Source: Cyanidioschyzon merolae (Eukaryota). Taken from it: a stretch of DNA of 64,000 bases. Position 1 is the stretch's first letter, and the number at the start of each line of letters is the position of its first letter. Location: the NCBI GenBank assembly GCA_000091205.1, contig AP006494.2; one strand, written 5' to 3'. A program made the position numbers and the translations under genes. Below, one piece after another: positions 11,781 through 63,292 of this stretch. The notes beneath the pieces were generated by a model. It worked only from the letters and a program-made list of their open reading frames with translations, had not been told where the DNA came from and did not search any database.

Positions 11781-11860
11781 GTATCCCGTCGGCTGCGGAT
11801 CAGTTCTGGGCATTCTCGCGCATCGACTCATGTCGGATTCATATAGAACGGATCCATTAA

Positions 11861-12928: not shown

Positions 12929-13346
12929 AAAATTCTATTGTGATCTCCGTTATCTTACGAACTCTTACCCGAGAGGCGTCGCGAATCATCTCAGTTCCTG
13001 TCACCAAACGCGTCCCAGCAACACGGAGTCGGACACGACACTTCAAATCGACGACAGAGCGTCCTAAAACTCGTATAAATCAGTAAACACCAACTGGTCG
13101 CACATCGGATCATGAGAATGCACATGTAAGAGTGAGCGAAAAGAACGAAGTGCAGAAACAGAGCGCCCAGTACAATGGACAATTTTCATTTGAAATAGCT
13201 CGTCGATGAAACAAAAGTTCATGTAAGATAAATGAATTCCGGCAGGGAGATGCTTCTCAGCCTTTTCGGTAGGCCCGCTGCTATTGGTTTGCGCTTCTCC
13301 TGGTAATCATCGAGCCTGAGAGGCTGCCCTACGATGTTGGCTCGCG

Positions 13347-18482: not shown

Positions 18483-19537
18483 TAGTGCTCAGCTATGACG
18501 TATAAATGATTTCGCATGGTATTCGAGAAGCACACCAGAGGGTCCTGCATCCATGCCGTGCGAAATGCATGGTGACTTCGGCGTTGACCGCACGCCTATA
18601 TTCAGAGCAATGCGGTCTGGAGCACAGCTGCAGTCGCGCGTTTTTGTTGGCTTGGTTTTTTGACGGGCTTTCGGAAGAGAAATCTATCTTTTAGAGTGGA
18701 GAAAACTGGCGGAAAGCTTTTAGGGTGTCATTGCTAGCTGGCGAGAAATGGCCTGACTTGCTCAAGCCAGACATTTTACGGTCAGCAACTGGATGAACCA
18801 ATGTGCTCTTGGTGCCTATTCTGAACGTTGCGTGCCGAAAACGGGGCAAACGGAACCCAGTAAACACATGGTTATCTGCTGATCAATCCATTCCATTGCA
18901 TACGTAATCTGGGAAACACCACAACAGAACGCATAGTTTGTGATACTTCCGTGCCGTTGGTCCCAAACGATGATGAAATGGTGTGGACGGACAAGAAAGA
19001 AAGTACTTTTCTCTTGATGATCGACGAGATCTGAACAACATATGACCGATTTCGTAGTAAGAACGGAACCGCGTACCACAGGAGGCACTAGTCTTTGTCT
19101 TACGTGGCGAGAGTTTATCCGGGAAAAGTGGTAGACCTGCATATGTGTACTGAACTAAAGACAAATCCGATGTTCGCAAAGAAGAGGCAAACGAGCATTC
19201 CGAAACCATCAGCACCAGTGGCGATGCTATCCTATGGTCGTCAACAAGTCGCCAAAAGGATACGATCGTTCTATAGCGCATGCTTCATCGACGCTTTGTG
19301 CGACATTATCTTCGCATACTCCGCTAGTCTGCTCTCAGAGTGCGTATCATTCCGCAACCCAGAAGTATTTGAGGACTATGCTGGTTAGATTGGTGCTCAG
19401 CTGATCTCTGTGCCAGGCTATTCGCGATGGAGCACACCGGTCGAAGGCGAGTCCTCCTATGCCGAACGTCCTTTCTATGCTGAAGAATCAATAGACGGGT
19501 ATTTCGCATTTTATCGAAAGCGAAAGCTACGGGACGC

Positions 19538-20146
19538 TAGGAATGATCGAGCAGCTTCGTACTCGAGGGAGGCTCATCTGGCATTCCTCGCCTCGACGTA
19601 GCTCGCTCAGCAAATATCCGCAGGAGCTCTGGACGCAGCTCTGCAAGCTGTCCAGATTCTTACGGAATTTATCCATCAAACTTTCGTGCTTGAACACAAC
19701 GCATGTTCGAGACAGAAGATGCAGCACGGCCTGACCGTTGGACCAGAGATTTGCACATGCGCTTCGCGGAAAATTCTCGACGCTCCGCAGTGCGACGTTG
19801 CCGGTCGAAGCGTCTCCAGCACAGGTGTCAAAAAGGTTCAAACACGCCTGAAAATCCTAAACTGTATATTGTTCAATGTCGAGGGCGTCGTGAATTTCGC
19901 CTCGTGGGCGTTGCACCCGCAGCACACTGACCCAGACATATGGGCTCTGGAGGAAGGAACTCTTGGCGTGACAACGGGCGCGAATGACGAGCTGTTGCCA
20001 AAAGAGATCAAAGAGGTAGCGAGCATCGACGAGATGTTGCAGCCAGAGCGAGCGTCGCTTCAGATCATCGGATCTTATCGTGTTGCTCTTGATCTCGGAA
20101 CGATGGGCGTCGTATGCAAAGGACGCTTCAAACATGAGGTCTGCCT
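19538..20146 (+). repeat. ~610-bp segment about 97% identical to 40446-41052 (inverted), shared by Fanzor-like copies 1 and 2
   Basis: The DNA and the embedded ORFs are near-identical: 19686..20180 '+' against 40202..40894 '-' (MLEHNACSRQKMQHGLTVGPEIC...IIGSYRVALDLGTMGVVCKGRFKHEVCL) and 19543..19734 against the end of 40846..41325. Both flanks diverge sharply beyond these coordinates. Confidence 0.85.
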
Positions 20147-20911
20147 TCCATTGACAAGCCGTACTATGACGTTTTCCTGAACAAAGCCCTCGAGAGCAAA
20201 CAGGATGTTCGCCCCGATGCCGAGCGCTCGGATCTTGCTCAGGCGTTTATTTAATCTGGTATCTATGTGGCACTTCAAGACCCTGCGGATCAGTGTAGAC
20301 ACTTCTGTATTGTACGGAATGACCTGTTCAATGCGGCACGGCTACTCTCTTGAAGCAAATATAAAGCTTTCGAACAAATTCGCAAGCAGCATTGGCGGAG
20401 ACGATCCAAGTTCCTCGTTTACGAGGGGGGATTCGGAACCGAGTCTCTTTCCAGGAGGTGCGCACTCGCCAACTTGTTCAATATTCTCGAAATGGAAATG
20501 ACCGATAAGCCGCGTCGCTCTTATTGGCAGCGAATGGCGCTGCCCGTGCTGTATTCCACGAAAGCCGCACCCCGACTCTACCGACGACAGCGACAAACGT
20601 TTGCAGGAATCGATTCTGTACGATCTCTGTCGATAAGTACAGGGCGCCGGATACCTCCCATGACCGGAGCATATGACCACGCTGAAACTGGTACAGAAGC
20701 AGAGTCGAAACCGAACCGCAGTCACGAAACGGTCGACTCTCATTTGAGCTAACTCCAGGTATCGAGACAATTTGAGTTTACTGCCCTGTTAAAATGTGAT
20801 TGCGCAAGCAACCAAGCGCACAAGCATATGCTGCATCGAGACCTGAACGCCTCGATCAACATTGCGAAATGTGTCGTGCTGCAGGAGCCTCAAACGGCAC
20901 TGTGTCGATAA
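19538..20911 (+). pseudogene. TnpB/Fanzor-like RuvC nuclease (copy 1) with RuvC-I, RuvC-II and RuvC-III recognisable but interrupted
   Basis: Frame 0 (19602-20180) gives '...LQIIGSYRVALDLGTMGVVCKGRF', a RuvC-I GxDxG-like motif with D at 20091-20093. Frame 2 gives 'LFNILEMEMTD' (RuvC-II glutamate at 20489-20491) followed by 'YWQRMALPVLYSTKAA'. After an in-frame TAA at 20750-20752, frame 2 continues with 'KCDCASNQAHKHMLHRDLNASINIAK' (RuvC-III, 20834-20869), and the stop is at 20909-20911. Confidence 0.65.
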
Positions 20912-22184
20912 AACTTTCGATGGAATCTTCTCGGGCTCCTTACAGGCGTTCTGTTGAAATGGGTAAGACTTTCAATGAGAAACAAAAGTATCAGCCATTA
21001 GAGGGGCGATTCCTTGCCCGACTGTATCCGGGCACTGGTATGAACCTGGTCAGCAATCCAGCAAGGCCTGGACGCCGTCTCTCTATATTCGGGGAACGAG
21101 TTTCCCGAGCGACTGGTGAACGACAATCCGAATCCGTTCTGCCATACTACTTAGCGTGCAAGGACCGAGCGTCCACGAAACTGGTCGTCGAGTGGAACCC
21201 ATCGCTTTGAGTACATACGCTCATGGATGGCGTGCGGAAAGCACTCGTGCGCTGCCGGCCCTGTGCAGCATTCATGAGCGACGCATCGCTTCTAATGCTC
21301 TCGCCTCCACGAACCAGATTGGAAGCACTCGTGCTCTGCGGGTATCGTCTTACACCCACGAGAACCCGACCCTGACAGAATGGTGGAAGCAGCAGCGTCC
21401 ACCGCAGAACGATAAACGCACATGGTGTCGCACGAAAGACGCAAATGATCGTTTCGAACGACGTTTGTGTGCTCAGGATCGTCTTGCGAACATCTGTTGC
21501 GAAACCCTTCCCATATACCCACCCGGTTCCATATCCAGAGCATGCCTCTAAGCAGTGCAGAGCTGTAACTGCAAGCGCGCCCTACACAAACACCCGTGGT
21601 ATCTTGCAACGATCAACAGTCGCTGCCGCCTTCGGATGCTTCTTGATGGCACGAATCGAGCAGCCGAAGCGAGCTTCACTGCTCATCCGCGCTTAGTGAG
21701 GTCTCTGCATACACGTGATCCGCTAAACGTTGTTTTCATAGATGCATGTAAAGCGCGTCCACCAGGACCTGGACATGCCCCGCGCCAAAAAGTCTCCGCG
21801 GATTGCGGAGCGCTTTCTGTGAGCTCGCCAGCGACAAGCGCTTCTTGTTGCAGAGTCATGCTGTACTAGGTCTCTTTATTCGTGTGGCGTTGAGCGTGAG
21901 TACGCTTAAAACAGTACCGAACTCGCCATGAGGTTCGCTTGTACACAACGCGCTCCGGTTTCGCGTGGAAAGCTTTATCGCCGGATCTGCATCGAACGCA
22001 GCTGGGCGCCGGTAGAGGGCGCTCATCTCCATTGCCGCCAGCGTCTATGATCCATTGCACATGCAAACTGGCACGCTGTCCAGTCCAGGTAGGTTCCGAC
22101 GCTGTACGCGGCAGGCAGGCAGTTTGGACACTACGAAGGCAACGACCGTCCGAAGCGTGCATCGAAACCACGATAGGTTCGCGT

Positions 22185-24326
22185 TCACACAACGGGTAGC
22201 TCATCCTCTAGATCGGCGTACGAGAACAAAAAGTCTTGCCTCACTCTTTGACACCACATTTGGTGATCAAAGTAGACATATGACCCTGATTCATAGTCAT
22301 CGGTCGTGAACCGGGGCTCTTCATGGCGCTGGAACCACGTCAAGTATCGTTTGTGGAAACGCCAAGCATGGCGTTTCAACTCAAGAGCAGCGAACAACTG
22401 ATGCCGTGGATTCTGTGGGAAGAAGAATATGAAGAACAGTGTGTCTGGATCGAGACGCTCGTACAGCTCTGGACTGTCCAAAGCTGCCAGAGGTGACTGC
22501 GGAAACGACCCGTGAACCGGAAACGGATTTCTAGGCTCATACCGAACTTGTTCTCGTTGCAGGGGCGCTGCAGCAGATTTGTTCTGGCGGGATGCTCCTA
22601 TTCCCGGGTTGGTACCGTTGGCTGAAGGCGCTGTTAGATAGAGTGCACCTTCTTCTAGTTGGCGCAGTGCTGTCAGCAGGGTTCGCGAGGCGATAGGGTC
22701 CGAGTCCACCAGTGCGGCATCGCCTGCGAGAAGCGCTGCTTCAAGTCCGCTACGTTCAGATGCATCCCGACCGGGGTCTTCGGGCGCCATCGATGCTGTA
22801 GCCGCTGTTGCAAATGCGTCACCACGGGAGCCCTGCAGATGGCCAAACTGCTGTGCCAATGGGACGCTTGCTCCGAGTCCAGCTGCCAGGGAAGACACAT
22901 TCATAGACACTGCGGATCCCTCGGGTGCACAGGTTCGCGAGTTCATCTGGTCTCCAGATTTCGATGGGTACGGGGACCGGAAAGGCGTTGCGGCGGTTGC
23001 CACCGTAGCTCCTGCACTCGTCCGAGAGTTCGACTCCAAGGACCCGCGATCAGCGTTGTCGACCTTAGAGACCATCACCGCCGCTAGAGCGTTAGCATGT
23101 GTGTCTCTTCCAGGTGGCAATCGTTGAACACTCGTTGGCATCTGGGGAGTGCTCTGCAACCCGAAAGAACCAAGCAAAGTGCTTGGATCCGTGGGTGTTG
23201 GCGTCTGGGGTGCAGCGCTCTGCTTCGATAACAGTACCGTAACAGGCTGTTGCTGGTTTGCCCAGGCCGAAGTCACTGGTCCGGCGGTGCTGCGCGGTCG
23301 ACCAGGACCTCCGGATGCGCCACCATCCGAGCCCAAAGCTCCGCCAATGGAAAGGTCTTCTTTGGATGCTGCCGCTTTGTTGTTCTCCTGTTCCGATGGA
23401 GGTCGTTTCGACTCGGATACGTCGCTGTTTTTTCGTCGCGAATCCTCTACGGGTGTCTGCGCTACACCTGCGGCTCCTGGTGTCGATGAATCTCGAGGTC
23501 GCCGTCCATCGTCCTCAGATTTGCGCTTCGCCTCACTTTCTTTTCTTTCAGCGTTTTCTGCTTCACTGGGCTTGCTCTCCGGCGCATGCTCCGTATCCTC
23601 CTTTGGCTTTGGAATATGAGAAACCTGAATCTCAACCGGGACCTCGAGCGTAAGCGCGTCGTATATACCCTCATCCTCCAGAAATCCATCTTCCGTATTC
23701 GCCTCGACATAGTACTCAACACTGTCTCTGATTTCATTCACGTCGTCACAATCGGCCGCATCGTTATCGAGCGCCCTAAGAATTCGCTCGAGCATCTCTA
23801 TATGATACTGGTGTCGCGCGATTTTCGCTCGCAGAGCATCCACAGCCATATGATCAATCTTCTTCTTCTTCGCGCTACTGACGGAAGCCTCAATATCCGC
23901 TTCGCGTTCTTCGATTTGAACTTTGAGCTTCTCGATGCAGTCTCTGACCCATTCGCGAACCTCGTTCTTCGACTTTTCAAGGGGGTCTGCCCGGTCCTGT
24001 GCCAGACCTTCCTTGCTGAACGCCTTCGTTTTCGTTTCTCTCTCACAGACTTTAAAAGCTTCCATTTTCTCTTCAATCTTCTTCCGGGCAACATCGATTT
24101 TGCTTTTGTCTTTGATTGAGGGGTCCGCTTGCCACACTTTGATTTGATCGCGAAGACGTTGCAGTTTTTTGATCTGCGACTTCAAGTCCGCTTCAAACTT
24201 ATCCCTTTGTGCAAGGTTTTGCGCAGCGTACACCTTATCCCAGATCTCGTTGAACAGGTCCAGACCTTCTTCGACTTTCTTGAGCGTGCGGTCGATTTCC
24301 GCTTGAAGTTTTCTGTTTGTTGCCAT
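22185..24326 (-). CDS. NOT3: CCR4-NOT complex subunit 3 (NOT3/NOT5 family)
   Basis: The N-terminus 'MATNRKLQAEIDRTLKKVEEGLDLFNEIWDKV...LKSQIKKLQRLRDQIKVWQ...FKVCERETKTKAFSKEGL...IARHQYHIEMLERILRALDND' tracks human CNOT3 nearly residue for residue. The C-terminal NOT-box is 'FFIFFFPQNPRHQLFAALELKRHAWRFHKRYLTWFQRHEEP'. The track start at 24359 is GTG; the ATG is at 24326-24324 (verified). Confidence 0.92.
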   Translation of the reverse strand: MATNRKLQAEIDRTLKKVEEGLDLFNEIWDKVYAAQNLAQRDKFEADLKSQIKKLQRLRDQIKVWQADPSIKDKSKIDVARKKIEEKMEAFKVCERETKTKAFSKEGLAQDRADPLEKSKNEVREWVRDCIEKLKVQIEEREADIEASVSSAKKKKIDHMAVDALRAKIARHQYHIEMLERILRALDNDAADCDDVNEIRDSVEYYVEANTEDGFLEDEGIYDALTLEVPVEIQVSHIPKPKEDTEHAPESKPSEAENAERKESEAKRKSEDDGRRPRDSSTPGAAGVAQTPVEDSRRKNSDVSESKRPPSEQENNKAAASKEDLSIGGALGSDGGASGGPGRPRSTAGPVTSAWANQQQPVTVLLSKQSAAPQTPTPTDPSTLLGSFGLQSTPQMPTSVQRLPPGRDTHANALAAVMVSKVDNADRGSLESNSRTSAGATVATAATPFRSPYPSKSGDQMNSRTCAPEGSAVSMNVSSLAAGLGASVPLAQQFGHLQGSRGDAFATAATASMAPEDPGRDASERSGLEAALLAGDAALVDSDPIASRTLLTALRQLEEGALYLTAPSANGTNPGIGASRQNKSAAAPLQREQVRYEPRNPFPVHGSFPQSPLAALDSPELYERLDPDTLFFIFFFPQNPRHQLFAALELKRHAWRFHKRYLTWFQRHEEPRFTTDDYESGSYVYFDHQMWCQRVRQDFLFSYADLEDELPVV

Positions 24327-26477
24327 AGCACGGACCTCCTTGAAGACGAAGAACTCCACCGATATTCATATAAAACTAGCGAGAGCCGAGGCACCAGCTC
24401 CTACCACAGCGCCACTCTCTAGTCCGTTGCGTCCAGTGCAAAAGCTGCAACCGCGACTTGCAGACCGAAAAGTCCAGTGCCTCGACACGGTACGATGTTA
24501 GCGAGCGCGTATGGGCGGCAAGCATCCGTTTGAAGACTATGGCACTTAAATGGACAAAGCAGTCGATTCTGCAGTTTTGTTTCGCGCATGGTTGCGCTGG
24601 ATCGTCGAGATTGCGCGAGCGGGGCACTTGTCGACGAAACGCGTCCAGCGTAGTCAGCGCTTCGCAGGACATGAAGCATCACTGGACGGCATGGAATGTT
24701 TTTCGCCATGTGGACGGAGTGCGCGAAACGCGGGTGTTTCCATCGCAGCAATGATGACCTCGCTTCAATGAAATGACGCGGCATTTGAAAACTTTTGTCC
24801 AGAGGTTTACACATCGACCGTGCGTGTAATCGTTCGAGGAGCAGCGACGTCACTTGTGACTTTTGTGCAACCGATGCGCCGTTGAATTCGAATGACGCGA
24901 CGCTGTTTCGTTCAGAGGATATTCGGGTTGCTCTCTGGAGAGAGCGTAGGGCGTCGCAGGTTCGAAAACGTCGCATCAAGTCTTGAGCATGGCTTGACAT
25001 GGTACGGATACGGCTGCATCATCAAGCATGAGATGAGCTGCTGTGTGTTCGCGATGCAGGATACATGTGGTTTGGAAAATATTTTAGGTCGGCCGCAGCT
25101 GGTGAAATTCTGGACCGTGACCCAATGAGTCTGTGTTGGGAGAAGTGCAACGAGCATGTTTCTGCAAATCCGTATGGGAGGAAATCGCCCGATACGGAAG
25201 AAACCGGAGGATAAAGACTGACGAAAGTATTCAAGCCCTTGGTCAATACCAAATCGGTGTGTTAGAAAAAGGTCAGCACCGTCCCGAATGGCGACGACTG
25301 CGTTCATCCTGCGCCTTTCCAAACTAGCTACCATACGCGATGCGGCATTGCTCGCTAGACACAGCTCTCCCTGCAGCTGAATGCCCCGATACCACGTAAT
25401 TCGTATCTCGTCTTCCAGTCTACATCAAATGGACTCTTTTCGAGCTTGGAGCGCCCGCCGTCCTCCTTGTGCACCAACGATATACCCATTGGCGAATATG
25501 CAGCACCGGCAGCGGGTGCCGGGCACTGCCGAGCACCCAGCTGCGGCACAACGCGACTCTGCAACCAATCAGTACAGAGATGCCTCGCTGATTTCACATG
25601 CCTCCGCTTCTACTTCGAGACACTGCACTCGTGTATGAATGCCCGGTGCTTCCACGCATTCGAGATTCTTCCAGATTCCAGGGCACCAATCTGCATCTTG
25701 ATGAATCTGCATGGACACTTTCATCCGGTGCTGCACGCATGCACGGATGGATACGTTTCCATGCGTGCACAGACAGCACGCATGGACAGCACGCATCCGC
25801 ATGCTGCAGTGCCGCTTATGAACTGCGTTGAGCTTGTAGCACCTGGGTATGCTCTTTTACGTTAGGAGCTGCTCGCTTAGAGAAACTCTACCAAGGTAAC
25901 CATTCTGGGCATCTGGGTTTTTCTATGTCGCTTCGAGAGACGGTTTTATGCTCTGGCCAAGTACGACATAACGAATGCTTGGTGTTCCATCGAGTCGGAA
26001 GCGCGCTTTGTGCAGCGTGTACAGCAACGGCGCGCTTCTTCGTCGTAGTTTCGGCGCTCGTCAAGCATGACGAACGTCCGCACACTCTAACGTACCGTTT
26101 GTGCGCACCTGCCGCGTATAGCTATAAACCGTGTGCTGACGACGAAATAGTCACGCTGGTGGCAGCGACTCGGCAGCGACCTCTGCAGCGTGCGCCGCAC
26201 TGCCCGTGCGGAGCCTGCGTTCGCGCCCCGCCGCTGGGATTGCTGTTCAGTGCGTAGTCAGCAAGCGAGAAATAGACGGCCTCGCACGTCCACACTTGCC
26301 GGACGTTTGCGAGCTACTGGGCCTGCAGCTTGCTAAAAACACTCTGATGGTCGGTTTGAGTGACTTTTGATCTCGTATCAAAGGCACATCCATTGCCTAG
26401 AGCTTCGGGGTGCGTTCCGGTCCCGATAAGCGCCAAGGCGTTTATAGCGAGCGGGACGCGGCAAGCGGGTGTGCTCA

Positions 26478-28076
26478 ATGACCTCTGCAGGTTCCCGAGC
26501 TAGCACCGATGAGGATGTAGGTTTGGAACGACTCCTGGGACCGGTGCAACGTACCTGTTACGACGCATGGCTGTCCAAATGCCTTGCTGCGCGGTGCGGC
26601 TTCTTCGAGGACGCCTACATCGCGCTACTGGATCCGATCCAGAGGCTGGCAGCTGATTCGGCAACATCGTGCCCGCAAGGGCGTGGAGAGCGGCAGCGGT
26701 TGCCGTGTCAGCACGGCGGTTTGTCAGCAGCGATTTCGGACGGCAGCCAGCGGCACGCATCGATACCCACTGTCGACCGAGGTGGCAAGCCAAGCGGAAG
26801 CAGCGCGCCGCACCCAGGCCGTGGCAAGGCGTTCCGAGAAGCTGCTGGCCCAGATTTCGCGTCATCGCCATATTCAGCGTGCGGCGATGTAGACGACGGC
26901 GAGGGCACGTGTTTGAATGCCGCGGGGCATCAAACGCTGGTAGGAGGCCAGCGAAACGGGCATAACGGCGCTGGGACTGCGCAACTGCTGAGCCTAGGCC
27001 AACGAGTACCGCGGTCGTTGCGTGTAAATAGCAGTGGCTTGGACGCGGTGCTCCTGCACGGCACGTACGCTCGGGTCATGGCGCTGCGTCACATCATGGA
27101 CACAGTCCTCGAGCGCCTGCGGTTGAAAGCGGGCGCGAGCCACCAGCCACCGATGCTGCAGTTGCTCTCGCTCGGCGCTGGACTCGATAGTATGCCATTC
27201 TGGTTACTAGAGCGGTCGCGTCAGGCAAGCGTGGCGGCGTCTTCATCACACCGAGAAGTGCCGCTGCCGCAGGTTCGCTACCATGAACTGGATACCGAGC
27301 AGGTGGCGTCGCTCAAGGCGTTGTGCATTCGACGGCAGGCAGCGCTCGCTCGCGCCATCCAAGCACCTGTCGCCGACGTGCAGGCACGCGGTGCGGGAAG
27401 CGCGGACGCATACGCGGGAGTCGCCGTCGCTGGCGCGCAGGCACCCGATGTTGCAGCCAACGTGCAGGTGGTGCTGGAAACCCCGGTGTATGCGCTGATC
27501 GCAGCGGACCTCTGCAGCGGCCGCTCCGTTCTCGGTGCTGCTCTGGAGCGCCTGCGGCGACATGGAGGCATGCGGCGCGAACCGAGCTTCACGCTCATTC
27601 TCCTGGAGTGCGTTCTGGCGTACCTGTCGCCGGCGGATACCGTGAATGTCCTAGAGGCATTGCGCGAGCAGTTCGCGAACCACCCGGCACTGCTGGTGTG
27701 CTACGATCCGATCGGCCTGGACGACGCGTTCGGTCGCCACATGCAACAACGCCTAGAAGAACGCGGTGCTCCGCTGCAAGGTCTGAATTGCCGCGCGACC
27801 CTGGATGAGGCTGTTCGCAACCTTGAGTCGTTGTTTGCACCTGGAGCGGCATCGAAGCATCCGGGCCGCGGCATGGATATGATGGAGGTCTACCAGCGAC
27901 TCCGGGACGACGCTTGCGAACGGAGCAGGCTCGAGCGCATCGTCGCACTCGATGAAGTCGAAGAGCTGCGCCTCTTGATGCGTCACTATGGACTGATTTG
28001 GGTGAGTAATGAGCATGCAGAAGTATTTGACTTTTTCAAACCTAGCAGATTCCAAGGCTCAGCGGTCGACGCCTAG
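26478..28076 (+). CDS. LCMT1: leucine carboxyl methyltransferase 1 (PP2A methyltransferase, LCMT1/PPM1) with a large low-complexity insertion
   Basis: N-terminal 'VQRTCYDAWLSKCLAARCGFFEDAYIALL' matches LCMT1 '[29 protein letters not shown]'. The SAM-fold motifs are 'QLLSLGAGLDSMPFWL' and 'ILLECVLAYLSP'. The track start at 26469 is GTG; the first ATG is 26478. Confidence 0.8.
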   Translation: MTSAGSRASTDEDVGLERLLGPVQRTCYDAWLSKCLAARCGFFEDAYIALLDPIQRLAADSATSCPQGRGERQRLPCQHGGLSAAISDGSQRHASIPTVDRGGKPSGSSAPHPGRGKAFREAAGPDFASSPYSACGDVDDGEGTCLNAAGHQTLVGGQRNGHNGAGTAQLLSLGQRVPRSLRVNSSGLDAVLLHGTYARVMALRHIMDTVLERLRLKAGASHQPPMLQLLSLGAGLDSMPFWLLERSRQASVAASSSHREVPLPQVRYHELDTEQVASLKALCIRRQAALARAIQAPVADVQARGAGSADAYAGVAVAGAQAPDVAANVQVVLETPVYALIAADLCSGRSVLGAALERLRRHGGMRREPSFTLILLECVLAYLSPADTVNVLEALREQFANHPALLVCYDPIGLDDAFGRHMQQRLEERGAPLQGLNCRATLDEAVRNLESLFAPGAASKHPGRGMDMMEVYQRLRDDACERSRLERIVALDEVEELRLLMRHYGLIWVSNEHAEVFDFFKPSRFQGSAVDA

Positions 28077-28164
28077 CCGGCAACAGCGGTATTCACAAGC
28101 GGCAGCTGCGGCTCGACACCGTGGACTACGCGCAAGCGGCCTTGTGCGGGCAATGCTCTACCCA

Positions 28165-28194
28165 CAGCAGTAGCAGCAGCAGTAGCAGCAGCAG

Positions 28195-28229
<35 letters not shown>

Positions 28230-28230
28230 G
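28165..28230. repeat. Compound microsatellite (CAGCAGCAGTAG)4(CAG)8 between LCMT1 and repeat copy B
   Basis: cagtagcagcagcagtagcagcagcagtagcagcagcagtagcagcagcagcagcagcagcagc read directly in the sequence. Confidence 0.9.
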
Positions 28231-29524
28231 CGTCCGATCGTAGACGACATGTCTAGCGATCTCAAGCCGTCCTCCGTGGTGAGGCGGAAGCAGCGATGCA
28301 GGCCTGCGCCTCGCAAAGACTCCGGTAATGACCATGCTGCACAGCATCCTGGATACCTGGTGACGCAGAGGCGGTCGCTGCTGCTCCGGGAATGCACCAT
28401 AGCGAACACGCGCACAGCCGTTCGCAGCGGCGCTGGTCGAATACAACGCCCACCTGCACGGAAATAACACGCTGGAGAAGCACCAGATGGAGTTACCAAC
28501 AGGCTGCGAATTCGCGGTATCCGTTGTCGTCGTCGCACCTGAGACGTGTTCTGCTCATTGACATGCCCGAACGGAAGCATCCGGACTCGATTTCGTTTCT
28601 CCAGTGCACACCGCAGCTGTGAGATCGTTCCCAGCAGGCCATGAAGCTCGTCAGTCTTCGCATCCGCAGCAGTGCTTTAGGCTAGCAGGTCTCAGCGCAA
28701 ACGGCGCTGCGCGTTATGCTCCACTCGACGTCGTTCTAGGCTGCGCGTTGGCGTCAACTGTCGTCGATGTCGGTGCATCGTGCGGCGTCGCGATGTCAGC
28801 CTGTGGCACCCGCCTTGCACCCGTTAGCTTCATTCGAATTCACGCGTGTCTGGGACACAGCTTTGTAGGCAGCGGCGACGAGTCCGGTGGCGCTTCGGCA
28901 CTGCCAGCAGCAAGCTGCGGTGCCGATGCCATTCCTCCCCATGGCGCCAGACGCATCGCTCGTGAGTGCGAGCTTGCACCAGACCGGGTTGGGGACTGCT
29001 TTTCCTTCTGCCTGCTGTTTTGCTCTATGCATTTTCCGCGTTATTCACTATTTCCAATTTCTGTATCTGGAAACAGTGCAGTACCTCGCGGGCATGACGG
29101 ACGCCGCAGCAGTTTTTTCTGCTCGGTGTTTCGCAGGTTCAAGACGCAAAAGCCTTCGGTTTGCTCTGGTCTGCGCCCCAGTTCAGTCTGCGTAAACCTC
29201 ATAGGCTCTGCTTTCGTTGACACCCGTTAGGGCACAAGGTAATACCTTTCAAGTTTCGGAAACTTGTTGCGCATAGCGGAACGCTTTTCCTGTCGCTGTG
29301 GCAAAGCAGTGTCAGGGATTTCGCCGAAGATCAAAACCTTACCAACCAGCTCCTGTTTCCATCGCCCGAAACAGATCCGAACCGGGATCCGGTACGAAGC
29401 ACGTTCGCAACCTGGATAAGAACGCAAGGCCTAGTTAGATGCAGTGCGAAGCCAAAAAACGTTGTTTCTGTTCGCTCCTAACGTATTCCAGCAGTCTCAG
29501 ACGATAACGGAACAGGTCTTCTAG

Positions 29525-30590
29525 CTCTGTCGCACACTCTAGCGTGCGGGCCTCGTTCCCTGGTCATGAATACCAGCACTTGCGGGTATTTTATGCAACT
29601 GCTCCCGCTTTCCTATCCCTATCTCTGACTTTAAATACGCTGGTGTCTCCTTTCCTTACAGCTTCGTTGTACGAAGACGAAGGATGTTGATCGTGAGATT
29701 GGAGCCCCAACTTCGCAGCCCCGATCTGTTGTGCAACTATGCCATGCACACCCGGGAGTTGCGATCCACGGTTCGCATGCCACTTGCATCTCCCTAGTAT
29801 ACGGAAACAGTGCGCCCTTCACGGCTGCGAAACTTGAATATGGTCAGGGGTATCCCATGGTTCCCCGCTGGCCCTCCGAGCACCACTACATGGCGCGTGA
29901 ACGCCCGTTTCATCGCTCGGTACATGCCTTTGACGGATGTAGGAGGATTGTATGGAAGCGTCGCTTAGCGTCTGCACCCGGTGGCCGTTCCAAGCGATCA
30001 CGGGCTGCCTCTGGGTGATTTGTGCTCCACTTACGTCCTCGGTGCACTGCATATGCAAACACGTGTAGTCGCATTTTTATGACGTGACTTGTGGAACGCA
30101 TCGTTGTCCATCATGCAACAGGTATCGGGAGGAGAAACCAGGTTCGGGATCCAGTCCAGCACTACCGATTCGTCTGGACTCCACTCCTGCAATGCAGAGT
30201 CAGACGCTGCACCGGCGGCGGTCGCTGTGATGACTCACGTCCGAATCCGAGGCCACATCGACGCAAAATGAGGACTTGAGAGCGTCCGGGAGCATCGCCG
30301 CTGCGTCGAGTCATGCTGCCGCCACACGTCATTTTGTCGATGCGCGCCACGAGAAAACGACGCGTGTTTCCAAAGCAAGCGATTGTTTGGAGTGAAAGGT
30401 TCAATAAATTAGCTGAATGAGGTTGTGAGCAATTGGTCAACCGCCAATGTTGAGAATTTTTTGTCGTTCATCCAACGGAGCGAATCGCAGCGTCCTCGAG
30501 TTGCCCCCGAATACAATGATCGAAATCGTGGGGTGAACGTGATTCGAGCATGCCACAAGTAAGGGAAGCTGAACTTTGGAGGTTCGCACA
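29525..30590 (+). repeat. Dispersed ~1.07-kb repeat, copy B (direct repeat of copy A)
   Basis: See copy A. It lies 17.66 kb downstream of A in the same orientation. Confidence 0.9.
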
Positions 30591-31275
30591 CAAGTACTGT
30601 ACAGTGATATATATTACTTTACAAATCCTTCGCTACAGGGCGTCACATTTCGTTTCGATTCCCATGACGTAAAGCATGTCAGCAACACCGCGTCCAAAAC
30701 GTCAATCCGAACACAACACCGAGTATTGTTCACCTACAAATGAATCCGTAAGCCTTTCTTCCTGTCCTTGGCATGTCAAGTCCGTACATCTAGAAAAACG
30801 TCGGATTTTATTCTCAAGGCATGAACAGAGCCAGCAGTTTAGCGTTTCGTTTTCATCCGAAACGAGTACTGCAGTGCGATCAAGTGCAGCACCAGCATGT
30901 CAGGCGTCCATAGCAGACCCCTTTCTAGCCATACTCCTCGAAAGGATGTTGCTGCATACGCAACGCTGTCGATTCCGACACCTTCATGGGTGCCGCATGT
31001 ACCAGCTGAGCAAAAGTGCAACCCCACAGGAAACCAGGTGCACGCCATGGCGCCTTCTGTACAAGGACGCGCGATTCATCGAAAAGCCAACATATAAGAA
31101 AAGAAAAATGCGCATAATCGGAGAACGCTGGCCTAAGTAAACGTTTTGTCAATGGAAAATCGAAAAGCCAACGGGCGCCCCTGGATTACCATGCATCGTC
31201 GTCGTTGTGAAAGTTTCGCACTGTGGCGTTTCCTTGGATACTGCTCGGCGACGATTCATAACTTTAGTGTATGTC

Positions 31276-33054
31276 ATGTGTAGCGGTGCCACCTCAGAAG
31301 AGAATGACGGTCACATCATGGAACAGGATAGCTCAGCTGCGGTTGGTGGTAACGAGTCAGCGACGTCCGCTCAGTTGCACGGCATACCTGTGGTTTACCT
31401 CGCAACGGATGATCAGGCTCGCTTCGCAACCGCGGACTTACGCATTCAAAGTGTTCCTGGAGTGCCCCAAGAACTTGCTGACACCTTGGAGCGCGATTAC
31501 GCCATCACGCACCTCTTTCCATTTCAGAAAGAGGTGCTTGCGTATATCCGAAGCACCGCGCTGACGCACTCGGGGGACGTGCTGCTTGGCGCTCCCACTG
31601 GCAGTGGCAAGACACTTATCTACGCACTCGCAGTTCTTCTGGACTTGTATAGCTCTGCATCGCTGTTCTGCGTGCGGGCACTGGTGGTCTTACCTACGCG
31701 GGAACTCGCCCGCCAAGTTGAAGGCATCTTTAGGACTTTGACGGCTTCTGCAAAACTGTCCGCTCGCGTGGCCGTTTTATCACTTCTGAGGGAGCGTGTC
31801 CCTCGGAGCGATCTCTTGAACAGGCAAGCAGTATGCATTACAACACCAGGGCGGCTTGTGGAAGCGTTGGATCGGCATGAGCTCCTTCTTGCCGACTTGC
31901 GATGGCTGGTCATCGACGAGGCTGATCGGCTATTTCGTCAGTCGTACCAAAACTGGTTAGAGCGGCTACTCCAACGAATAGACTGTGCACGGCGGGTGCT
32001 AGATCCACCGTTAAGGCGTCTCAGAAAGCTGCTTTTCTCCGCCACGCAAACGAGGGATGCAACCCATTTGGCTGCGCTGCGCCTTCATCACCCGGTTTAC
32101 CTCCTGTGTCACGCGTCGACCGAAGGCGCTCGCCAACCATCGAAGTTGCGCAGGGGGCTCATGGACCAAGTACCTGCAGGACTGACCCTGTGCTCGCTGC
32201 GGTTTCTCTCCGAGGAGGATAAGCTGCGCTTCCTCCTTCGTCTCATTGTGTGTGGCCCGGACATCCTCGCCACGCTGAGGGATCCGTCTGACCAATCGAG
32301 TCGCCCAGATCATAACCGTATGTTGATTTTTGTGAAATCTGTTGAAACGACCCATCGACTTTGTCGATTCGTACAGCTCGCCTCGAACTGGTTATGGCTG
32401 AGGCATTACCCGAGTCCAGTATCTACTCGGGACCGGGGTCCGCGGCTGCTCGCAGAAGAGATAAGCAAACAGGTCTCCGAATCAGCACGTGCGGCGACGT
32501 TGGAGCGCTTCCAACGCGGCACGACGCAGTGGTTGATCTGTTCCGATGTCATGGCTCGGGGCATGGACATTGCGGAGGCATCGCATGTCGTGAATTTCGA
32601 TGTACCAGCACATCCAACAACTTATCTTCATCGAGTTGGACGCGTCGCACGGGCAGGTCGACCCGGAACTGCCTTAACGTTTCTTTTGCGAAACCAAGTG
32701 GGGTATTTTCAGTCTGAAATCATTGCACGGGTGCGCAACGATACCCAGAAGGACCTCGGAATCATTCGTGCAGAGCATATTGTCCCTGATTTGAGACGCG
32801 AACCTTTTGGTTTCGGTGTCGAGCATATCCTTCGTGGTACCGCATTGATACTTGAGCTTGAGCAACAGGCCCTGGTGGCACCACATCAACCATTGAGTCT
32901 TGTGATTAGTGCGTATGTTCGCGAGCAGGTTGTTGATGAGCCTGTGAATGAGGTGACGGAGATGCGCGCGGGAAAATCCGTGAAGCGAATGAAGCGCGCG
33001 CTGAGCATCATCGCACTTCAGAATTGGTGCGACAAGTCCGAAACCTTCGCATAG
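31276..33054 (+). CDS. DEAD-box ATP-dependent RNA helicase, DDX51/Dbp6-like (ribosome biogenesis)
   Basis: 'LLGAPTGSGKTLIYALAVL...VRALVVLPTRELARQVEGIF...TTPGRLVEALDRHELLLADLRWLVIDEADRLFRQSYQNWL...LFSATQT...HRVGRVARAGRPGTALTF' parallels DDX51 'VSAPTGSGKTLAFVIPVV...IRALVVLPTKELAQQV...TPGRLVDHI...LRFLIIDEADRMIDSMHQSWL'. The track start at 31207 is GTG; the first ATG is 31276, and 31318 is an alternative. Confidence 0.8.
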   Translation: MCSGATSEENDGHIMEQDSSAAVGGNESATSAQLHGIPVVYLATDDQARFATADLRIQSVPGVPQELADTLERDYAITHLFPFQKEVLAYIRSTALTHSGDVLLGAPTGSGKTLIYALAVLLDLYSSASLFCVRALVVLPTRELARQVEGIFRTLTASAKLSARVAVLSLLRERVPRSDLLNRQAVCITTPGRLVEALDRHELLLADLRWLVIDEADRLFRQSYQNWLERLLQRIDCARRVLDPPLRRLRKLLFSATQTRDATHLAALRLHHPVYLLCHASTEGARQPSKLRRGLMDQVPAGLTLCSLRFLSEEDKLRFLLRLIVCGPDILATLRDPSDQSSRPDHNRMLIFVKSVETTHRLCRFVQLASNWLWLRHYPSPVSTRDRGPRLLAEEISKQVSESARAATLERFQRGTTQWLICSDVMARGMDIAEASHVVNFDVPAHPTTYLHRVGRVARAGRPGTALTFLLRNQVGYFQSEIIARVRNDTQKDLGIIRAEHIVPDLRREPFGFGVEHILRGTALILELEQQALVAPHQPLSLVISAYVREQVVDEPVNEVTEMRAGKSVKRMKRALSIIALQNWCDKSETFA

Positions 33055-34987
33055 GGCACACGTACTCGGCAGCGTCGTCGAATGCACAGGCTACTGCTGT
33101 GATGTCATATGGTTGGTGGTTGTTTTCTTTTTGGGGGGGAGCGTGCTCTACCGCAACTGTGGTATGTTTCCCCATGCTGCATCAATGTTGAAGCATTATT
33201 AGGTGTCTAGCTCGAGCCACGCGATGATTATCGTTTGGCGAAGCGGCGGCATCTGCTGAGTGCAATGCACATATCAGCTTTGACGTATCCATTGCAATAT
33301 TACTTTGGAATGTGAACGCATATGCAATTCGAGAAGAACTCGGCCCGGTTTCGCGACGCCTGCAGTGAAATGGCATCCGCAAGCACGTGGGCGGAGGTAT
33401 GCATCGATCCGCGCTCAGCCGTCATTCCTATGCATTGAAAGCCAACACTAGGATCGGGATCACGCAGGCACGTGAACAAGAACCCGATTCAGCCGTACCC
33501 ATTATCGCTTGCCACCGGTTCGTGCGAAGAAGTGCAAGCTACAAGTCGCTTTGCGTCGGTCTGGTAATTTGCCAGCCCAAACGACCACGAAATTCCTGGA
33601 GGAATGACTCCAGGGGCACGCAGCACATCCAGTACCTTGATGAGCGCAGCATCTCAGTTCGTGCATGTTCACGACTCGCAAGGCATGATGGGAAAAGTTC
33701 GGCCAATCGGAAATTTACTCCTAGTCCAGTATCCGTGATCGTTCATATGCTTGCGTCTAAAAGTCATCGATCTAGATGTATTTTCAATGTGTATGTAAAA
33801 TCACTGAGCATCCGCTATCATGATGCATGCTTGAGGCCTCTGCGCCTGCTTTGAGTCTTCGTGCAAAGTCCGGCGGCGTCAGGTTGCCTCATGGTACACA
33901 AACAGAATCCAGTCGGCGAACAATCGTGCGTCCCGCTGCCTGCCGATTATCGGCTCCTCTGCTAAAGCGCACGTCATGCCCAGGGATCAGCTGGGCGACT
34001 CGAGGCATCCGCGACTTTTGTGCAGGCATATCCTTGAGCGGGCGCTTCGTCCACGTCTGCGACTGCTGCTTACCTCGTACCTTGAGAATACCCGCACGTG
34101 TTCGCGAATAACGCTCTCGGGATCGATGCTTGCTTTCGGGGAATCCCCGGGCGGAACGGATTCCGGCGCATACCTGGGCACGACGTGAGCGCAATCGTCT
34201 GTTTTGTCGAGAGCCACAAAGCGAGGAGGATTCTTCTTTCGAACAGAATCGATCACTGGACATGGCAAGTTTAGTGAAAGCTCGACTTGAGCGTACGAGC
34301 ATACCGTCACGGGAACAAGTCGCGTATATTTCTCGTCCATTCAGCGGCGCTAATGACACCGCGCAGTAGTCGCCCTGAAAATGATAGATTCTTGAAGAAT
34401 GCGTGATGTGAGCATACTATATGGAACAAAAGTACGCGATTAGCGACTTGTGCATGTGAATTGGCTAAGGATATCGGTTCATAGTCGAACTCTTCTTCAG
34501 GTACTTTCGAATCATCTTCATTACGGTGACGTAACGGATTCCAGCAGCTAGAGCTGATACGAGTCATCTCGAAAAAAAACCCCCACTGAAAATCTTGAAT
34601 TACCCATGAATACGCATGCTCGTATTGCGGCACGTCGACCCTCGAACCTGAATATCTAACACTGGTTCGCGAGAAATCTCAAGACAGGAACAGAACGTAC
34701 AGACCAGCGTTCCATGTTCATGATCAACGGGTACAAGGAGCGTATCCAGCGACCTTTCCAGTGTTCAGCGAACGTTTGCCCGCACACCAGCTATACGGTA
34801 TTGTCAGTCGCTACGGAGCGTCTGCTCGGAACGGGCCGTGCGACGCCTGCTTCTGCTGCGTCAATGAAAGACCCCGCCCTGGTACGCAGACGCGTCAAGT
34901 CGTGCTTTTTCGGGGTGAACGAGCTGCCCGCGACTTGCGTTTCGAACTGAGTGGATCGGCTTGTCCGGCTTTTCTCATGCGGCTGCG

Positions 34988-35509
34988 ATGCCTGCGCGTC
35001 TAGTCTGCGCAAGCTCCATACGTTCCCGAGGCTGGCTCACTGAGCCGCTGGGGAGGCTCGCTCAGCTCGTTTTCGTCGTGTCTGGCTTCTACGTAGGATA
35101 TGCTCTCGTTCTAAACCTGTTGGACTGGTTTGTACTGGGTAACGCAGGAGACCAAGGTTCTGTATTCGAGCGCATCTTCAACGCTGCGAGTCTGGGTTTG
35201 GAGAGCGTTCCGGCTATCGCGCACGCGTTGGCACTCAGCCTGGCTTTACTTTGGAGCGGCGTTCTCACTTACTATGTTGTGGATCGAGCTCGACAGTGCG
35301 TGGACTACACGACATCGCTCCTCGCATTTCATGTCATAGCGTGTTGGGCTAGCTTCGGTTTACCAGCTGGGCTCCTATGGTGGTGTTGGGTTTTCATGAT
35401 TGGAGGTGGTGCCGGCCTAGTCGCAACGATTCTCCGACAGCGCAAGGACCTAGCACCGATTGCCATTGTTACCGCTGAGAACGGACACAACAACATGGCG
35501 CTTCCGTAA
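34988..35509 (+). CDS. SYS1: SYS1 homologue (Golgi integral membrane protein, four transmembrane helices)
   Basis: 'RARQCVDYTTSLLAFHVIACWASFGLPAGLLWWCW' matches human SYS1 'RGKQCLDFTVTVHFFHLLGCWFYSSRFPSALTWWLV'. The N-terminus 'SRGWLTEPLGRLAQLVFVVSGFYVGYALVLNLLDWFV' aligns to 'FRSYVWDPLLILSQIVLMQTVYYGSLGLWLALVDGLV'. The track start at 34961 is TTG; the first ATG is 34988. Confidence 0.75.
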   Translation: MPARLVCASSIRSRGWLTEPLGRLAQLVFVVSGFYVGYALVLNLLDWFVLGNAGDQGSVFERIFNAASLGLESVPAIAHALALSLALLWSGVLTYYVVDRARQCVDYTTSLLAFHVIACWASFGLPAGLLWWCWVFMIGGGAGLVATILRQRKDLAPIAIVTAENGHNNMALP

Positions 35510-36893
35510 CGAAGGCGGGTACGTGGTGCTTTTGGTACCATTTTTGGAGTCCGCCATAGCGCGGGAAACCAGTCGGTCTATTGTACATGCTTGAGCATGC
35601 ATTTCCGCATCTATTGAAATTGTTGCCACCACCTCTGCGCAGCGTCTTTCGTAGAAACACTGTGATCCATGGAATAGCTTGGAGCGCTTAACGCTCGGGC
35701 ATCAGCACCCGTGCGCACCTATGCAACGCGAAACCTCCAGTGCAGTCCAATCCGAAGATGTTGCGACGCCTTGGTGTCAGGCGGTGCGCATCCGTCGCTA
35801 GCGTGTATGCGAACGCAGGAGCTGGTAGGTCCACTCTTGGCGGGACGCTCTCGTAGCATATATTGGCAACTGTCAGGGTGTCGAATATGCACTTTGCGCA
35901 TCGTCTCTGGAAAGCATGCCCGAAAGCGTGGTACATGAGAGTAGTCAGCAGCGCTTATGCCTGCCGAAGGCGTCACTCAAAGCAGTGAACGGGGTCATCC
36001 GTGTGAGCGCCGACGTCTCTGTTCATAAGTCGACAGGAAGCGGCATCATGGCAGGTATATCTCCCGCATGCGGCGCGTACCTGCGCGTGGGGTTGTGTGC
36101 CACGGTGCCGAGCTGCATCCCTGCCATGACGCATACAGGAACAACGTCATCGAGCCGCTGATCTGACCAATGTTTTCTGCAAGCACCAAGGATAAACATG
36201 CCCGATACCTTGCGTGCCGTCATCGAAGCGCGCCTTTGATCCGAACACGGAGCGGTTGATCCAAGCTGTCGTCCGTAAAAGCGCGGAAAGGTCCCCAGAT
36301 CGACGACCTGCTCTGGGGCATTCCACGCAACACCCAAAACCATGCACATGTCACTTTCAAATGTTGTGCAATTGCGACATTGTCGTCTCGGTCTGCAGGT
36401 TCACAGAGGAAACGCTTTTGCCAGTAAGTGCTCGTCTCTATCGTGAAGCACTGCAATGCACTGCACCATCGGCTGCAGGTTCATAAGAGGCGATTTTGCG
36501 CTACGAATCTCTTGTTGGCTTCAGCACGATGCTGCATCCATCCAGTGGACGTTGAAGCAGGATGGCTATCCGATGGTGTTCTCGGCGCTCCTATTTTCCT
36601 TCGAGCAGTTCATTTGTCCAGGACTCTGCATGCAACGGATTCAACGCATGCGCTGATGTTCGTGGAGCACGTCCAACGCCTCTATCCATGCCACTACGCT
36701 CTGGTCACTCGTGACCAGCAGCAGTTCTCGTTCAAGAAAACGTTCGGAAGCAAGCGGTTGCCGTTCAGCGTCGCGCCCGCGGTCATTGGAATGTAACCAG
36801 TTTTGCTTGTACCTACCGGGATGCTCGCGCGAGCAAAACGCGCAAACGTCCTTCACATCAAGTCGAAGCGCGCAAGACGTCTAAAGATGCGCA

Positions 36894-37535
36894 TCATCCG
36901 CACCGTTCCGGAAAGCTAGCTGAAGCACACTTTTCAGCGAGACACGCCCTGCAGGCGCTAACGTAATCTGCTGCCGGTTGGCAGCGAACGCGCTCAACGA
37001 GATCTTCAGCGAATGCATCTCGCTCTAAATGAAAACATCCCCGTCGACGCAGTTCCGTGAGCACCGCCCAGCGGTGCTGCCAAGCCGAGTTGTTCAGCGG
37101 GTCACGTTCGAGTTCGCGAACAGTGGTGCTGTTCCACTCTCGCCAGAGCAGATCTTCGTTTATAAGTTGCGGATTTCGAATCAACCACTGCCGATGACTG
37201 TACAAGTGATAGTTTTTCGCGTTTTCCGGGTCCGTGAGCAGCGCATCGAGCCGATCCAGCTCCTCTGCGCCGAGCGCTGACAGGGCTGAGGCCTCAAGCG
37301 CTTCACACTCGGTGAGACGCCTGATCAAAAGCACACGCCGGTGGTGCCAAACCTGGTAGTTCTTGGGAAACCTGCGGCACCACTGATCCGCTTTGGCCAA
37401 ATCGTCCTCGCCGAGCTCCCGTGCGATCTCCCAGGCAGTATAGTCCGCGGGGTTCAGTTGGAGGACCGGTTCCAGGCCAGCGTCAGCGATCCGATCCCGA
37501 GCGCGCTGGACACGTTCCACGCCACGTATCCTCAT
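36894..37535 (-). CDS. protein farnesyl-/geranylgeranyl-transferase type-1 alpha subunit (PPTA repeat protein), compact form
   Basis: Tandem prenyltransferase-alpha repeats: 'LNPADYTAWEIAREL...KNYQVWHHRRVLLIRRL...AKNYHLYSHRQWLI...NNSAWQHRWAVL'. Compare human FNTA 'ANYTVWHFRR...KNYQVWHHRRVLV...KNYHAWQHRQWVI...NNSVWNQRYFVI'. ATG at 37535 verified. At 213 aa it is short, so N- or C-terminal exons may be missed. Confidence 0.7.
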   Translation of the reverse strand: MRIRGVERVQRARDRIADAGLEPVLQLNPADYTAWEIARELGEDDLAKADQWCRRFPKNYQVWHHRRVLLIRRLTECEALEASALSALGAEELDRLDALLTDPENAKNYHLYSHRQWLIRNPQLINEDLLWREWNSTTVRELERDPLNNSAWQHRWAVLTELRRRGCFHLERDAFAEDLVERVRCQPAADYVSACRACLAEKCASASFPERCG

Positions 37536-38847
37536 GACAGCGCTTCTAGCGCTGCTTGATGGAAGCGTTTCAACCCAAGTGTGCGAGCCTGAAAACGAAC
37601 GAACACCGCTCTGCAGCAGATTGTCAAACTGACTATGAACCGCGGACGCTGCGGCATCGGTTTGCCTTTGTGGCCGCGCTCGCCGCCGCCAAGACTTTGT
37701 TGCAACACACGTCGTGTTACCGCTGCGACCCGCTTCGTATTCGAGCGATACTTGGCTTGGGTACGATCATCATCGACCCTGAGCTCTATGTGTTCGTGGA
37801 AATCATGGTCAGAGAAGCGAGTGTTCTGAGTTATATTGAACAGCGGAACGCGACTATCGATCCTCAGTTGCCCATGGATAGTGTTCTCGACGTATACAGA
37901 TGAAGCTCGATCCTTTCTGGGGTGCACAGCGGCACCGTGCCTGTTTCCTGCTCCAGCCGAGAATCTAATCCTCTTTTCCAGGTCAATGACTTTTTTACAT
38001 CGGGTGTCTGCAGCGTCTCACAACCAGGCGCGTACTGAGGCCGAAATGATTCCCTGCAAAGTTCATTTGACATGAATGTATTGGGGGCTCCAGAGGCACG
38101 ACATGTTGCCGGAAGTCGATTTTAGGCGGTGAATTCGAGGTGCGAAACTAGCTTTTGTGCGTTTTTGCTCATGCCATCTCAACATAGCACGTCTGTCATC
38201 TCCGATGGCTACGTCGTCTGATATTTGCTCACCCTGCCGCACACTATGCCCTGCGTTCCGATGTGTTCCGCGCATCTCTCCCGAGCCTGTACCAGCGTGA
38301 ATATAAGCCCATGAAGCGTTTGTGCTGTCCTGAGCACACTGATGGGGATCGATTCCCGCAGTTGTTGTATGCTCTCGTCGGCGGTGTACGAGTACAGCCC
38401 TTGTGCACTGCGGCGCGTCCAGCGCTATGGACTTGTACACAACGACTCGACGAATTCTGCCATATGCGTTGCGAAATCACTAAAGAACCTGGCGAATGCA
38501 TGATTCATGGGTCCGTACAACCGAAACCGGTCGCTCTCCCAGCGCTGTCTCATGTACTCAAGCAAAGAATCGTCGGCCTGAGCCATCTGGATACTCTGGT
38601 GTTCTCCCAATCGAGCGTTTACAGTACATCCAATGCTCGACACGGTACTCAGAGCGTTTAAACGAACCCTGGGGACGTCATCCCTGTTGCTCGTACGCCT
38701 CCTGGCGTCTAAAACGACCGGCGCCTGTTGGTACCGAGCCCTCGAAAAGTTCAGCAGGTTCATTCGCTTTCCCGTTTATCGGATCTGTGAAACGATAAAC
38801 GTTTCACGACCGTATCGTGCACACATACACCCATTCGCAGCCGCCTT

Positions 38848-62628: not shown

Positions 62629-62674
<46 letters not shown>

Positions 62675-63241: not shown

Positions 63242-63292
<51 letters not shown>

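Follow-up and report, generated by a model that had tools for sequence, protein, structure and literature searches.

A 614-nt block near-identical between two diverged, inverted Fanzor1 relics of Cyanidioschyzon merolae is a probable footprint of gene conversion

Two pseudogenes of the Fanzor1 family, lying in opposite orientation in the nuclear genome of Cyanidioschyzon merolae 10D, share a 614-nt block that is 98.4% identical and is bounded by strongly diverged sequence. The patch is real but unremarkable, a trace of genome repair that adds one more case to a process already known. It is probably the product of in-register interlocus gene conversion between the linked, inverted paralogues before the strains of C. 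merolae diverged, followed by continued exchange between the two copies. Recent conversion or recombination was also among the readings offered in the original prediction, made from the sequence of this stretch of DNA, and is the one best supported by our analysis: the replacement is in register, the flanks are diverged but homologous, the block occurs in two contexts, and polymorphisms are shared between the copies.

The window, the whole 64,000-nt stretch that we analyzed, is part of the finished assembly of the C. merolae 10D nuclear genome. A 641-aa ORF at 16557-18482 matches the annotated RPN3 of this strain exactly, and the other ORFs near the two loci are ordinary eukaryotic genes that lack introns, among them RIC1, NOT3, and genes for poly(A) polymerase, an AAA ATPase, and DEAD-box helicases. 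RPN3 and NOT3 border locus A; locus B lies between a prenyltransferase-like ORF and an eIF4A-like helicase. The loci are 20 kb apart and oppositely oriented in a genome of 16.5 Mb.

Using a repeat search and self-BLASTN of the 64-kb window, we found that the shared block, originally described as about 610 bp long and about 97% identical, is an inverted repeat of 614 nt whose copies differ by 10 mismatches and no indels. The second copy, previously placed at 41052-40446, had been positioned 6-13 nt away from its true location (Table 1). The abrupt edges that had been described are borne out, as identity drops from 98.4% inside the block to the random level of 22-25% in ungapped comparisons of the 50 and 100 nt adjoining each edge. 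The searches ruled out an origin by chance or from low-complexity sequence, given the size of the match. Copy A has C or G where copy B has T or A at eight of the 10 mismatches, four of them within CpG. When environmental sequences serve as outgroups, just two of these, at sites 223 and 404, prove to be C>T changes private to 10D copy B.

Table 1. Coordinates of the block, the two relics and neighboring features within the 64,000-nt window
Feature	Position	Strand	Remarks
Relic A, upstream part (5′ region and N-terminal coding)	18650..19533	+	53.2% colinear identity to B 41500-42380
Block copy A	19534..20147	+	Frame from 19536; in-frame TAG at 19599-19601; CMe-1 Fanzor1 residues ~72-272
Relic A, downstream part	20148..20917	+	CMe-1-like segments, residues 274-333 and 581-697; ~250 residues missing between
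Segment between inverted arms	20148..40432		20,285 nt; includes NOT3 and DEAD-helicase genes
Diverged CMe-1-like fragment	38272..38769	-	Residues 457-625; 29% identity; tblastn E = 3e-14
Internally deleted CMe-1A element	38878..39263	-	Residues 2-66 joined to 646-713; blastn 75.8% to consensus 2863-3019
Relic B, downstream part	40202..40432	-	In frame with block for 76 codons
Block copy B	40433..41046	-	Matches copy A as its reverse complement; shares the in-frame TAG (40981-40979)
B-specific segment, ~450 nt	41047..41499	-	Directly 5′ of block; alignment gap versus A; stop-free in block's frame
Relic B, upstream part	41500..42380	-	Homologous to A 18650-19510; ~53% identity

The published Fanzor1 family of C. 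merolae, CMe-1A, has a 3169-bp consensus, approximately 150 copies, and a 734-aa protein (Bao and Jurka, 2013; PMC3627910). Its 5′ 635 bp is common to TE-N2_CMe, with 95% identity, and chimeric Fanzor elements are on record (Bao and Jurka, 2013; PMC3627910). In blastn searches, the 3169-bp consensus matched the window at 13317-16307, 38903-39056, and 48531-48630. The block and its flanks showed no nucleotide similarity to the consensus, which ruled out the possibility that the block is the 5′ module of CMe-1A and TE-N2_CMe; neither the block nor the flanks belong to the CMe-1A family proper, which is defined by approximately 80% nucleotide similarity.

The relationship emerged at the protein level. 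With the 734-aa CMe-1 protein as query, tblastn aligned residues 68-333 to 19518-20321 of locus A (24% identity, E = 7e-6), residues 581-697 to 20569-20917 of the same locus (E = 3e-9), and residues 107-330 to 40939-40271 of locus B (E = 5e-6). CMe-1 is thus colinear with both loci, which belong to the Fanzor1 (CMe-1 type) family by protein homology. Since these matches come without nucleotide similarity, loci A and B are relics of a much more divergent Fanzor1 lineage. Neither locus carries an intact nuclease-encoding ORF, as stops, a frame shift, and missing residues interrupt them, and both loci are pseudogenes of a Fanzor1 (TnpB-like) family distantly related to CMe-1A. Besides the published CMe-1A, C. 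merolae thus has another Fanzor1 lineage, separate from it and much more divergent. When the 230-aa ORF of locus B was searched against 1.84 billion representatives (HMMER, profile-free), only five weak relatives were recovered, P0011-P0015. These are fragments of 75-292 aa with 31-47% identity to the block and are evidently other old copies of the block-bearing Fanzor1 lineage. No viral relative of the block was found in IMG/VR.

The block had been proposed to contain the RuvC-I core. The RuvC-I motif of CMe-1 (GADPGNTN) is at residue 429, placing the block, which aligns well before it, in the N-terminal part of the protein and not in the RuvC-I core. The block lies approximately 160 residues upstream of the RuvC-I aspartate, and its string ALDLGTMGVV aligns to a non-catalytic stretch of CMe-1.

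At locus A, just two stops interrupt the frame of the block between 19089 and 20178 (363 codons); stops in the relic are at 19386, 19599, and 20178. The family motif YRKRKLRD|A, which matches CMe-1 YKEKLREA, spans the 5′ junction of the block seamlessly, and a 1-nt frame shift occurs within 14 nt 3′ of the block. Further downstream, HRDLNASINI at 20834-20863 aligns to VNRDFNAAINI of CMe-1 and carries the C-terminal RuvC-III motif (RD..NA..NI). The Pfam family PF07282 scored below threshold at this locus (E = 0.13), as it did for CMe-1 itself (E = 0.51).

At locus B, the block's frame extends over 556 codons with two stops, the B-specific 450 nt included. The stops are at 41410 and 40981, with the frame open between them, and the relic is interrupted after 40202. 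The B-specific segment had no relative among the block, A's flanks, and CMe-1 in nucleotide and protein comparisons, and a protein database search indicated that this flank is single-copy. We considered whether the segment could be the displaced old counterpart of the block and rejected this for the same absence of similarity to the block, CMe-1, and A's flanks. In the downstream part, FDSVPVSNIKAHYI matches CMe-1 residues 310-323 (z = 5.9). Possibly, the diverged CMe-1-like fragment farther along the same strand is the 3′ remainder of relic B, lying past approximately 1.4 kb of inserted material.

An internally deleted CMe-1A element sits between the block-bearing part of relic B and this fragment, and the RuvC-III box that had been assigned to copy B (at approximately 39000-39080) belongs to this separate element. 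The broken ORFs on the minus strand at approximately 39420-40180, between the block and the deleted element, contain an HTH-like string (VSHTTVGRWL) and DDE-like strings (SVDETCFG, LPLDNTVFYQS, and SFNVIEG). A mariner/IS630-like transposase, the candidate that these suggested by eye, is not supported, as Pfam returned only HTH_36 with E = 0.18 and tblastn with the PUl-1 mariner transposase gave no match.

We next consider the flanks. Upstream of the block, 860 nt of the two loci align colinearly with few gaps at 53.2% identity, compared to 41.9 ± 1.2% for shuffled sequences, and include an 87-nt local match with z = 12. Direct protein similarity between the upstream ORFs of A and B was not significant (z = 1.5), in contrast to the nucleotide alignment. 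The downstream flanks do not align to each other (z = -0.5), but each matches CMe-1 residues 305-333 (A, z = 7.3; B, z = 5.9). Thus, the description of the loci as otherwise divergent paralogues holds with the correction that the upstream parts are colinear and the downstream parts are related only via CMe-1. As in a conversion tract, near-identity is bounded by diverged homologous sequence, with the downstream homology detectable only through CMe-1.

The motif FN.V..(N)IK follows the end of the block after 34 codons at locus A and 33 at locus B, and the downstream registers of the two loci are offset by 1 nt within the first 14-15 nt. Because the same CMe-1 motif follows 33-34 codons past the block at both loci, the replacement was in register to within 1 nt. 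The long residual frames that run through the block at both loci likewise indicate that the patch occupies the homologous position of coherent gene relics. The exchange therefore has the character of an in-register replacement without net insertion, yet B carries 450 nt of heterology at its 5′ side. No microhomology is visible at either junction of the block. The clues to the donor point both ways, since A retains the family motif over the 5′ junction and B remains in frame over the 3′ junction.

We propose that the history began with two old, very divergent Fanzor1 pseudogenes in inverted orientation, 20.3 kb apart. Shortly before the strains diverged, 614 nt of the N-terminal coding region of one copy would have been replaced in register by that of the other, through ectopic (interlocus) gene conversion or templated repair of a double-strand break. 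The donor would have carried the in-frame TAG, which would explain its presence in both copies. Afterward, the arms would have drifted neutrally while short tracts continued to be exchanged, helped by near-identity over 614 nt and by a haploid genome proficient in recombination, and the arms may also have crossed over and inverted the segment between them. The proximity of the loci, 20 kb within 16.5 Mb, favors such a local event. Two reports describe integration of DNA by homologous recombination in C. merolae (PMC3764038; PMC5348525). We infer conversion as the mechanism, together with its direction and its start between flanks that are approximately 53% identical. With flanks of this identity and junctions without microhomology, the founding event is not what would be expected of ordinary homologous conversion.

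Environmental contigs approximately 99.3% identical to 10D were retrieved through RPN3 variants and block ORFs. The block edges are identical in the environmental strains. The trusted phased set consisted of four sequences, 10D A, 10D B, L003, and L012, the latter two from one k141 assembly and phased by copy-distinguishing SNPs less than 141 nt apart. In this set, three sites group A with A and B with B, two (168 and 245) support the swapped split, and none clusters the copies within a strain. Divergence between A and B is 1.6-2.4%, compared to 1.3-1.8% between orthologues. Together, the site pattern and these divergences indicate that the founding event predates the strain split only slightly.

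When all contigs were considered, both alleles of sites 168, 245, 311, and 445 occurred in A-linked and in B-linked copies; site 69 was the only one fixed by upstream context. A derived pair, 495A and 531T, lies within 120 nt of the 3′ edge and is found with the downstream flank of B in L012 and with that of A in L019, P0031, and P0035. Unless the arms had exchanged sequence, it would be difficult to account for the linkage of this pair to both flanks. Sharing of alleles between paralogues, a further mark of a conversion tract, is thus observed, partly in metagenome contigs that may be mosaics of copies or strains. A third environmental lineage is represented by L021 and L023 (samples 3300050370 and 3300050367), whose haplotype combines 192T, 350C, and 366A with 354G/357G as in 10D copy A. 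This haplotype is almost identical whether joined to the downstream flank of A or of B; either the arms were re-homogenized, or the assembler did not separate them.

The environmental contigs also bear on whether the arms have crossed over. Five of the 12 block-spanning contigs join unlike flanks. In L013, L019, L020, and L021 (four samples, three assemblers), the upstream flank of B is followed by the block and the downstream flank of A, and L017 carries the reciprocal arrangement, bringing the samples with unlike-flank contigs to five. The parental arrangement is found in L002, L003, L007, L012, L022, L023, and a 57.7-kb contig carrying P0028. Both unlike-flank junctions are exactly those expected from a crossover that inverts 20,285 nt. 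Such contigs fit an inversion and mis-assembly of the repeat equally well, as the repeat exceeds the length of short reads and several samples include more than one strain; the SNP patterns of the contigs do not separate inversion from chimeric assembly. In L017, the copy-distinguishing positions 69, 531, and 574 of the block read N, a sign that the repeat was probably collapsed. That the arms act as a recombination switch, such that natural populations carry both orientations of the 20.3-kb segment, is a possibility to which we give some weight but would not favor. Were the segment to flip repeatedly, with the crossover at a different point each time, the arms would come to trade alleles reciprocally, which is the pattern at sites 168 and 245. 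If this is correct, C. merolae, which is regarded as haploid and largely clonal, carries an invertible segment with NOT3, a DEAD-box helicase, and other genes.

An exact block 30-mer retrieved only A- or B-flanked contigs from the JGI metagenome collection, and protein searches returned only two 3′ continuations of the block (...HEVCL-PLTSR and ...HEVCL-RNISC). A third context for the block, or for an A-type or B-type flank, was absent from several environmental genomes approximately 99% identical to 10D. The search for further copies that had been suggested, carried out in metagenomes and protein databases, thus yielded only the A and B contexts. Given only two contexts and a single-copy B flank, the block is a two-copy repeat and not a young multi-copy element in the window and the environmental assemblies. 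Separately, we rejected a small, MITE-like mobile element, as the block has only two contexts, no terminal inverted repeat, and no target-site duplication; the adjoining sequences (gctacggg/ccattgac and atgcaga/aggaacat) contain no duplication.

The main rival to local conversion is that the block was shuffled between Fanzor1 subfamilies while these were mobile, so that two chimeric elements of mosaic lineages inserted at A and B. Module sharing of this kind is documented in C. merolae, in the 635 bp common to CMe-1A and TE-N2_CMe (PMC3627910), and both relics contain few stops, so the divergence of their flanks may date from functional subfamilies. Yet the lack of a third context for the block or either flank type, and the stop codon common to both block copies, count against shuffling among mobile elements, and it is unlikely that two independent insertions would fall so near each other (20 kb in a genome of 16.5 Mb) and so close in time. 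Moreover, alleles shared between the copies would still require later exchange between the loci. We therefore disfavor this explanation and consider it improbable.

Somewhat less probable again is that A and B were each converted by a third member of the family, undetected and located elsewhere in the genome, with the 614 nt marking where the two tracts overlap. Distant members of the family do exist (P0011-P0015), but neither exact 30-mer nor protein searches revealed a third context, including in environmental genomes 99% identical to 10D, and this scenario needs two events where conversion between A and B needs one.

It is very unlikely that purifying selection on a protein module or an embedded RNA keeps the copies near-identical, as the original prediction had also allowed. 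The block does retain a long frame with a single stop. However, the differences between the copies comprise eight non-synonymous and two synonymous changes (pN/pS 1.26), and both copies contain the in-frame TAG. Comparison with the environmental relatives revealed that the block diverges by 1.3-1.8% between strains, compared to 0.5-1.3% for neutral flanks and approximately 0.2% for neighboring genes; its divergence is thus at least that of the neutral flanks, and the other family members are only 31-47% identical to it. An internal RNA element is rejected on similar grounds, as conservation of the block does not exceed the neutral expectation, Rfam gave no hit in the window at the gathering threshold (no model exists for an omega RNA of this Fanzor1 family), and the block folds no better than shuffled sequences (MFE z-score 0.20). 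The block evolves neutrally.

A collapsed or chimeric reference contig, the possibility raised at the outset as fatal to the finding, is excluded for practical purposes, since independent metagenome assemblies run through the whole block from one A flank to the other (L002, L003, and L007) or from one B flank to the other (L012, L022, and L023) and the 10D copies differ at 10 sites, and nothing specific favors it beyond the tendency of metagenome assemblers to break or mis-join at the block. Metagenome contigs that enter from the RPN3 side (L001, L004-L006, and L008-L011) end at or inside the block, at window positions 19439-19916. That so many do so is evidence that the 614-nt repeat breaks short-read assemblies.

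The window contains other repeats. A second near-identical pair, at 11858-12904 and 29522-30568, is 1047 nt long, direct, and 98.6% identical, with 15 mismatches. Long ORFs are absent from it, and the sequences directly beside the two copies do not align. Next to relic B, at 42773-44038, lies a third copy that is only 58.7% identical to 11830-13096. The 1047-nt pair may be another young patch, within a repeat family that is itself old, or else a young copy that has been truncated. A full-length CMe-1A copy on the minus strand at 13317-16307, directly upstream of RPN3, is 78% identical to consensus positions 12-3012. Two tandem 62-nt units at 48524-48585 and 48670-48731, 146 nt apart, are 94% alike and resemble the extreme 5′ end of the CMe-1A/TE-N2_CMe consensus, which a 5′-end fragment at 48531-48630 matches at 77% over 100 nt. 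Most of the remaining self-similarity of the window consists of GCA/CAG trinucleotide runs (28143-28251, 54116-54176, 58770-58848, 62595-62706, and 63221-63320), some of which lie in ORFs.

The conversion that we favor would document mitotic-type ectopic recombination between transposon relics in a very small, repeat-poor eukaryotic genome, in which a pair of copies from a dead Fanzor1 family continue to interact. In practice, the 614-nt repeat breaks short-read assemblies, the 20-kb gene-bearing segment may be invertible, and caution is warranted when homologous recombination is used for targeting near loci A and B. The finding leaves the understanding of such systems unchanged.

Ectopic (interlocus) gene conversion between dispersed repeats is known for yeast Ty elements, human Alu and L1 elements, and duplicated genes. 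The C. merolae block resembles such cases in being a short near-identical tract in diverged paralogues, in register, at linked loci, and with later shared polymorphisms. It differs from the usual case in that its flanks, at approximately 53% identity, are far below what initiation usually requires and in that the tract adjoins 450 nt of heterology in B. Recombination between inverted repeats drives inversions, as in the flip-flop of the plastid inverted repeat and at human int22h/F8. Here too, a unique segment lies between near-identical inverted arms, environmental contigs show the two reciprocal junction types, and alleles appear to be swapped at sites 168 and 245; unlike in the established inversions, the junctions come from short-read assemblies, which can mis-resolve a 614-nt repeat.

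Homing by TnpB and Fanzor RNA-guided nucleases promotes copying by homologous repair, as work published in 2023 described. The block lies in Fanzor-family sequence, and a nuclease break repaired from the paralogue would leave such a patch. Unlike in homing, both copies are pseudogenes, and guide RNAs are encoded at a distance from the 5′ half, where the block lies; nothing here links the patch to a Fanzor cut. The nearest comparison within the same genome is the module of CMe-1A and TE-N2_CMe. The elements that share it are multi-copy (70 and 150 copies) and carry it as their 5′ terminus, whereas the block is internal coding sequence, is present just twice, and does not resemble the CMe-1A consensus at the nucleotide level; the two cases have in common the genome, the superfamily, and a module of approximately 600 bp that is near-identical between otherwise unlike elements (PMC3627910).
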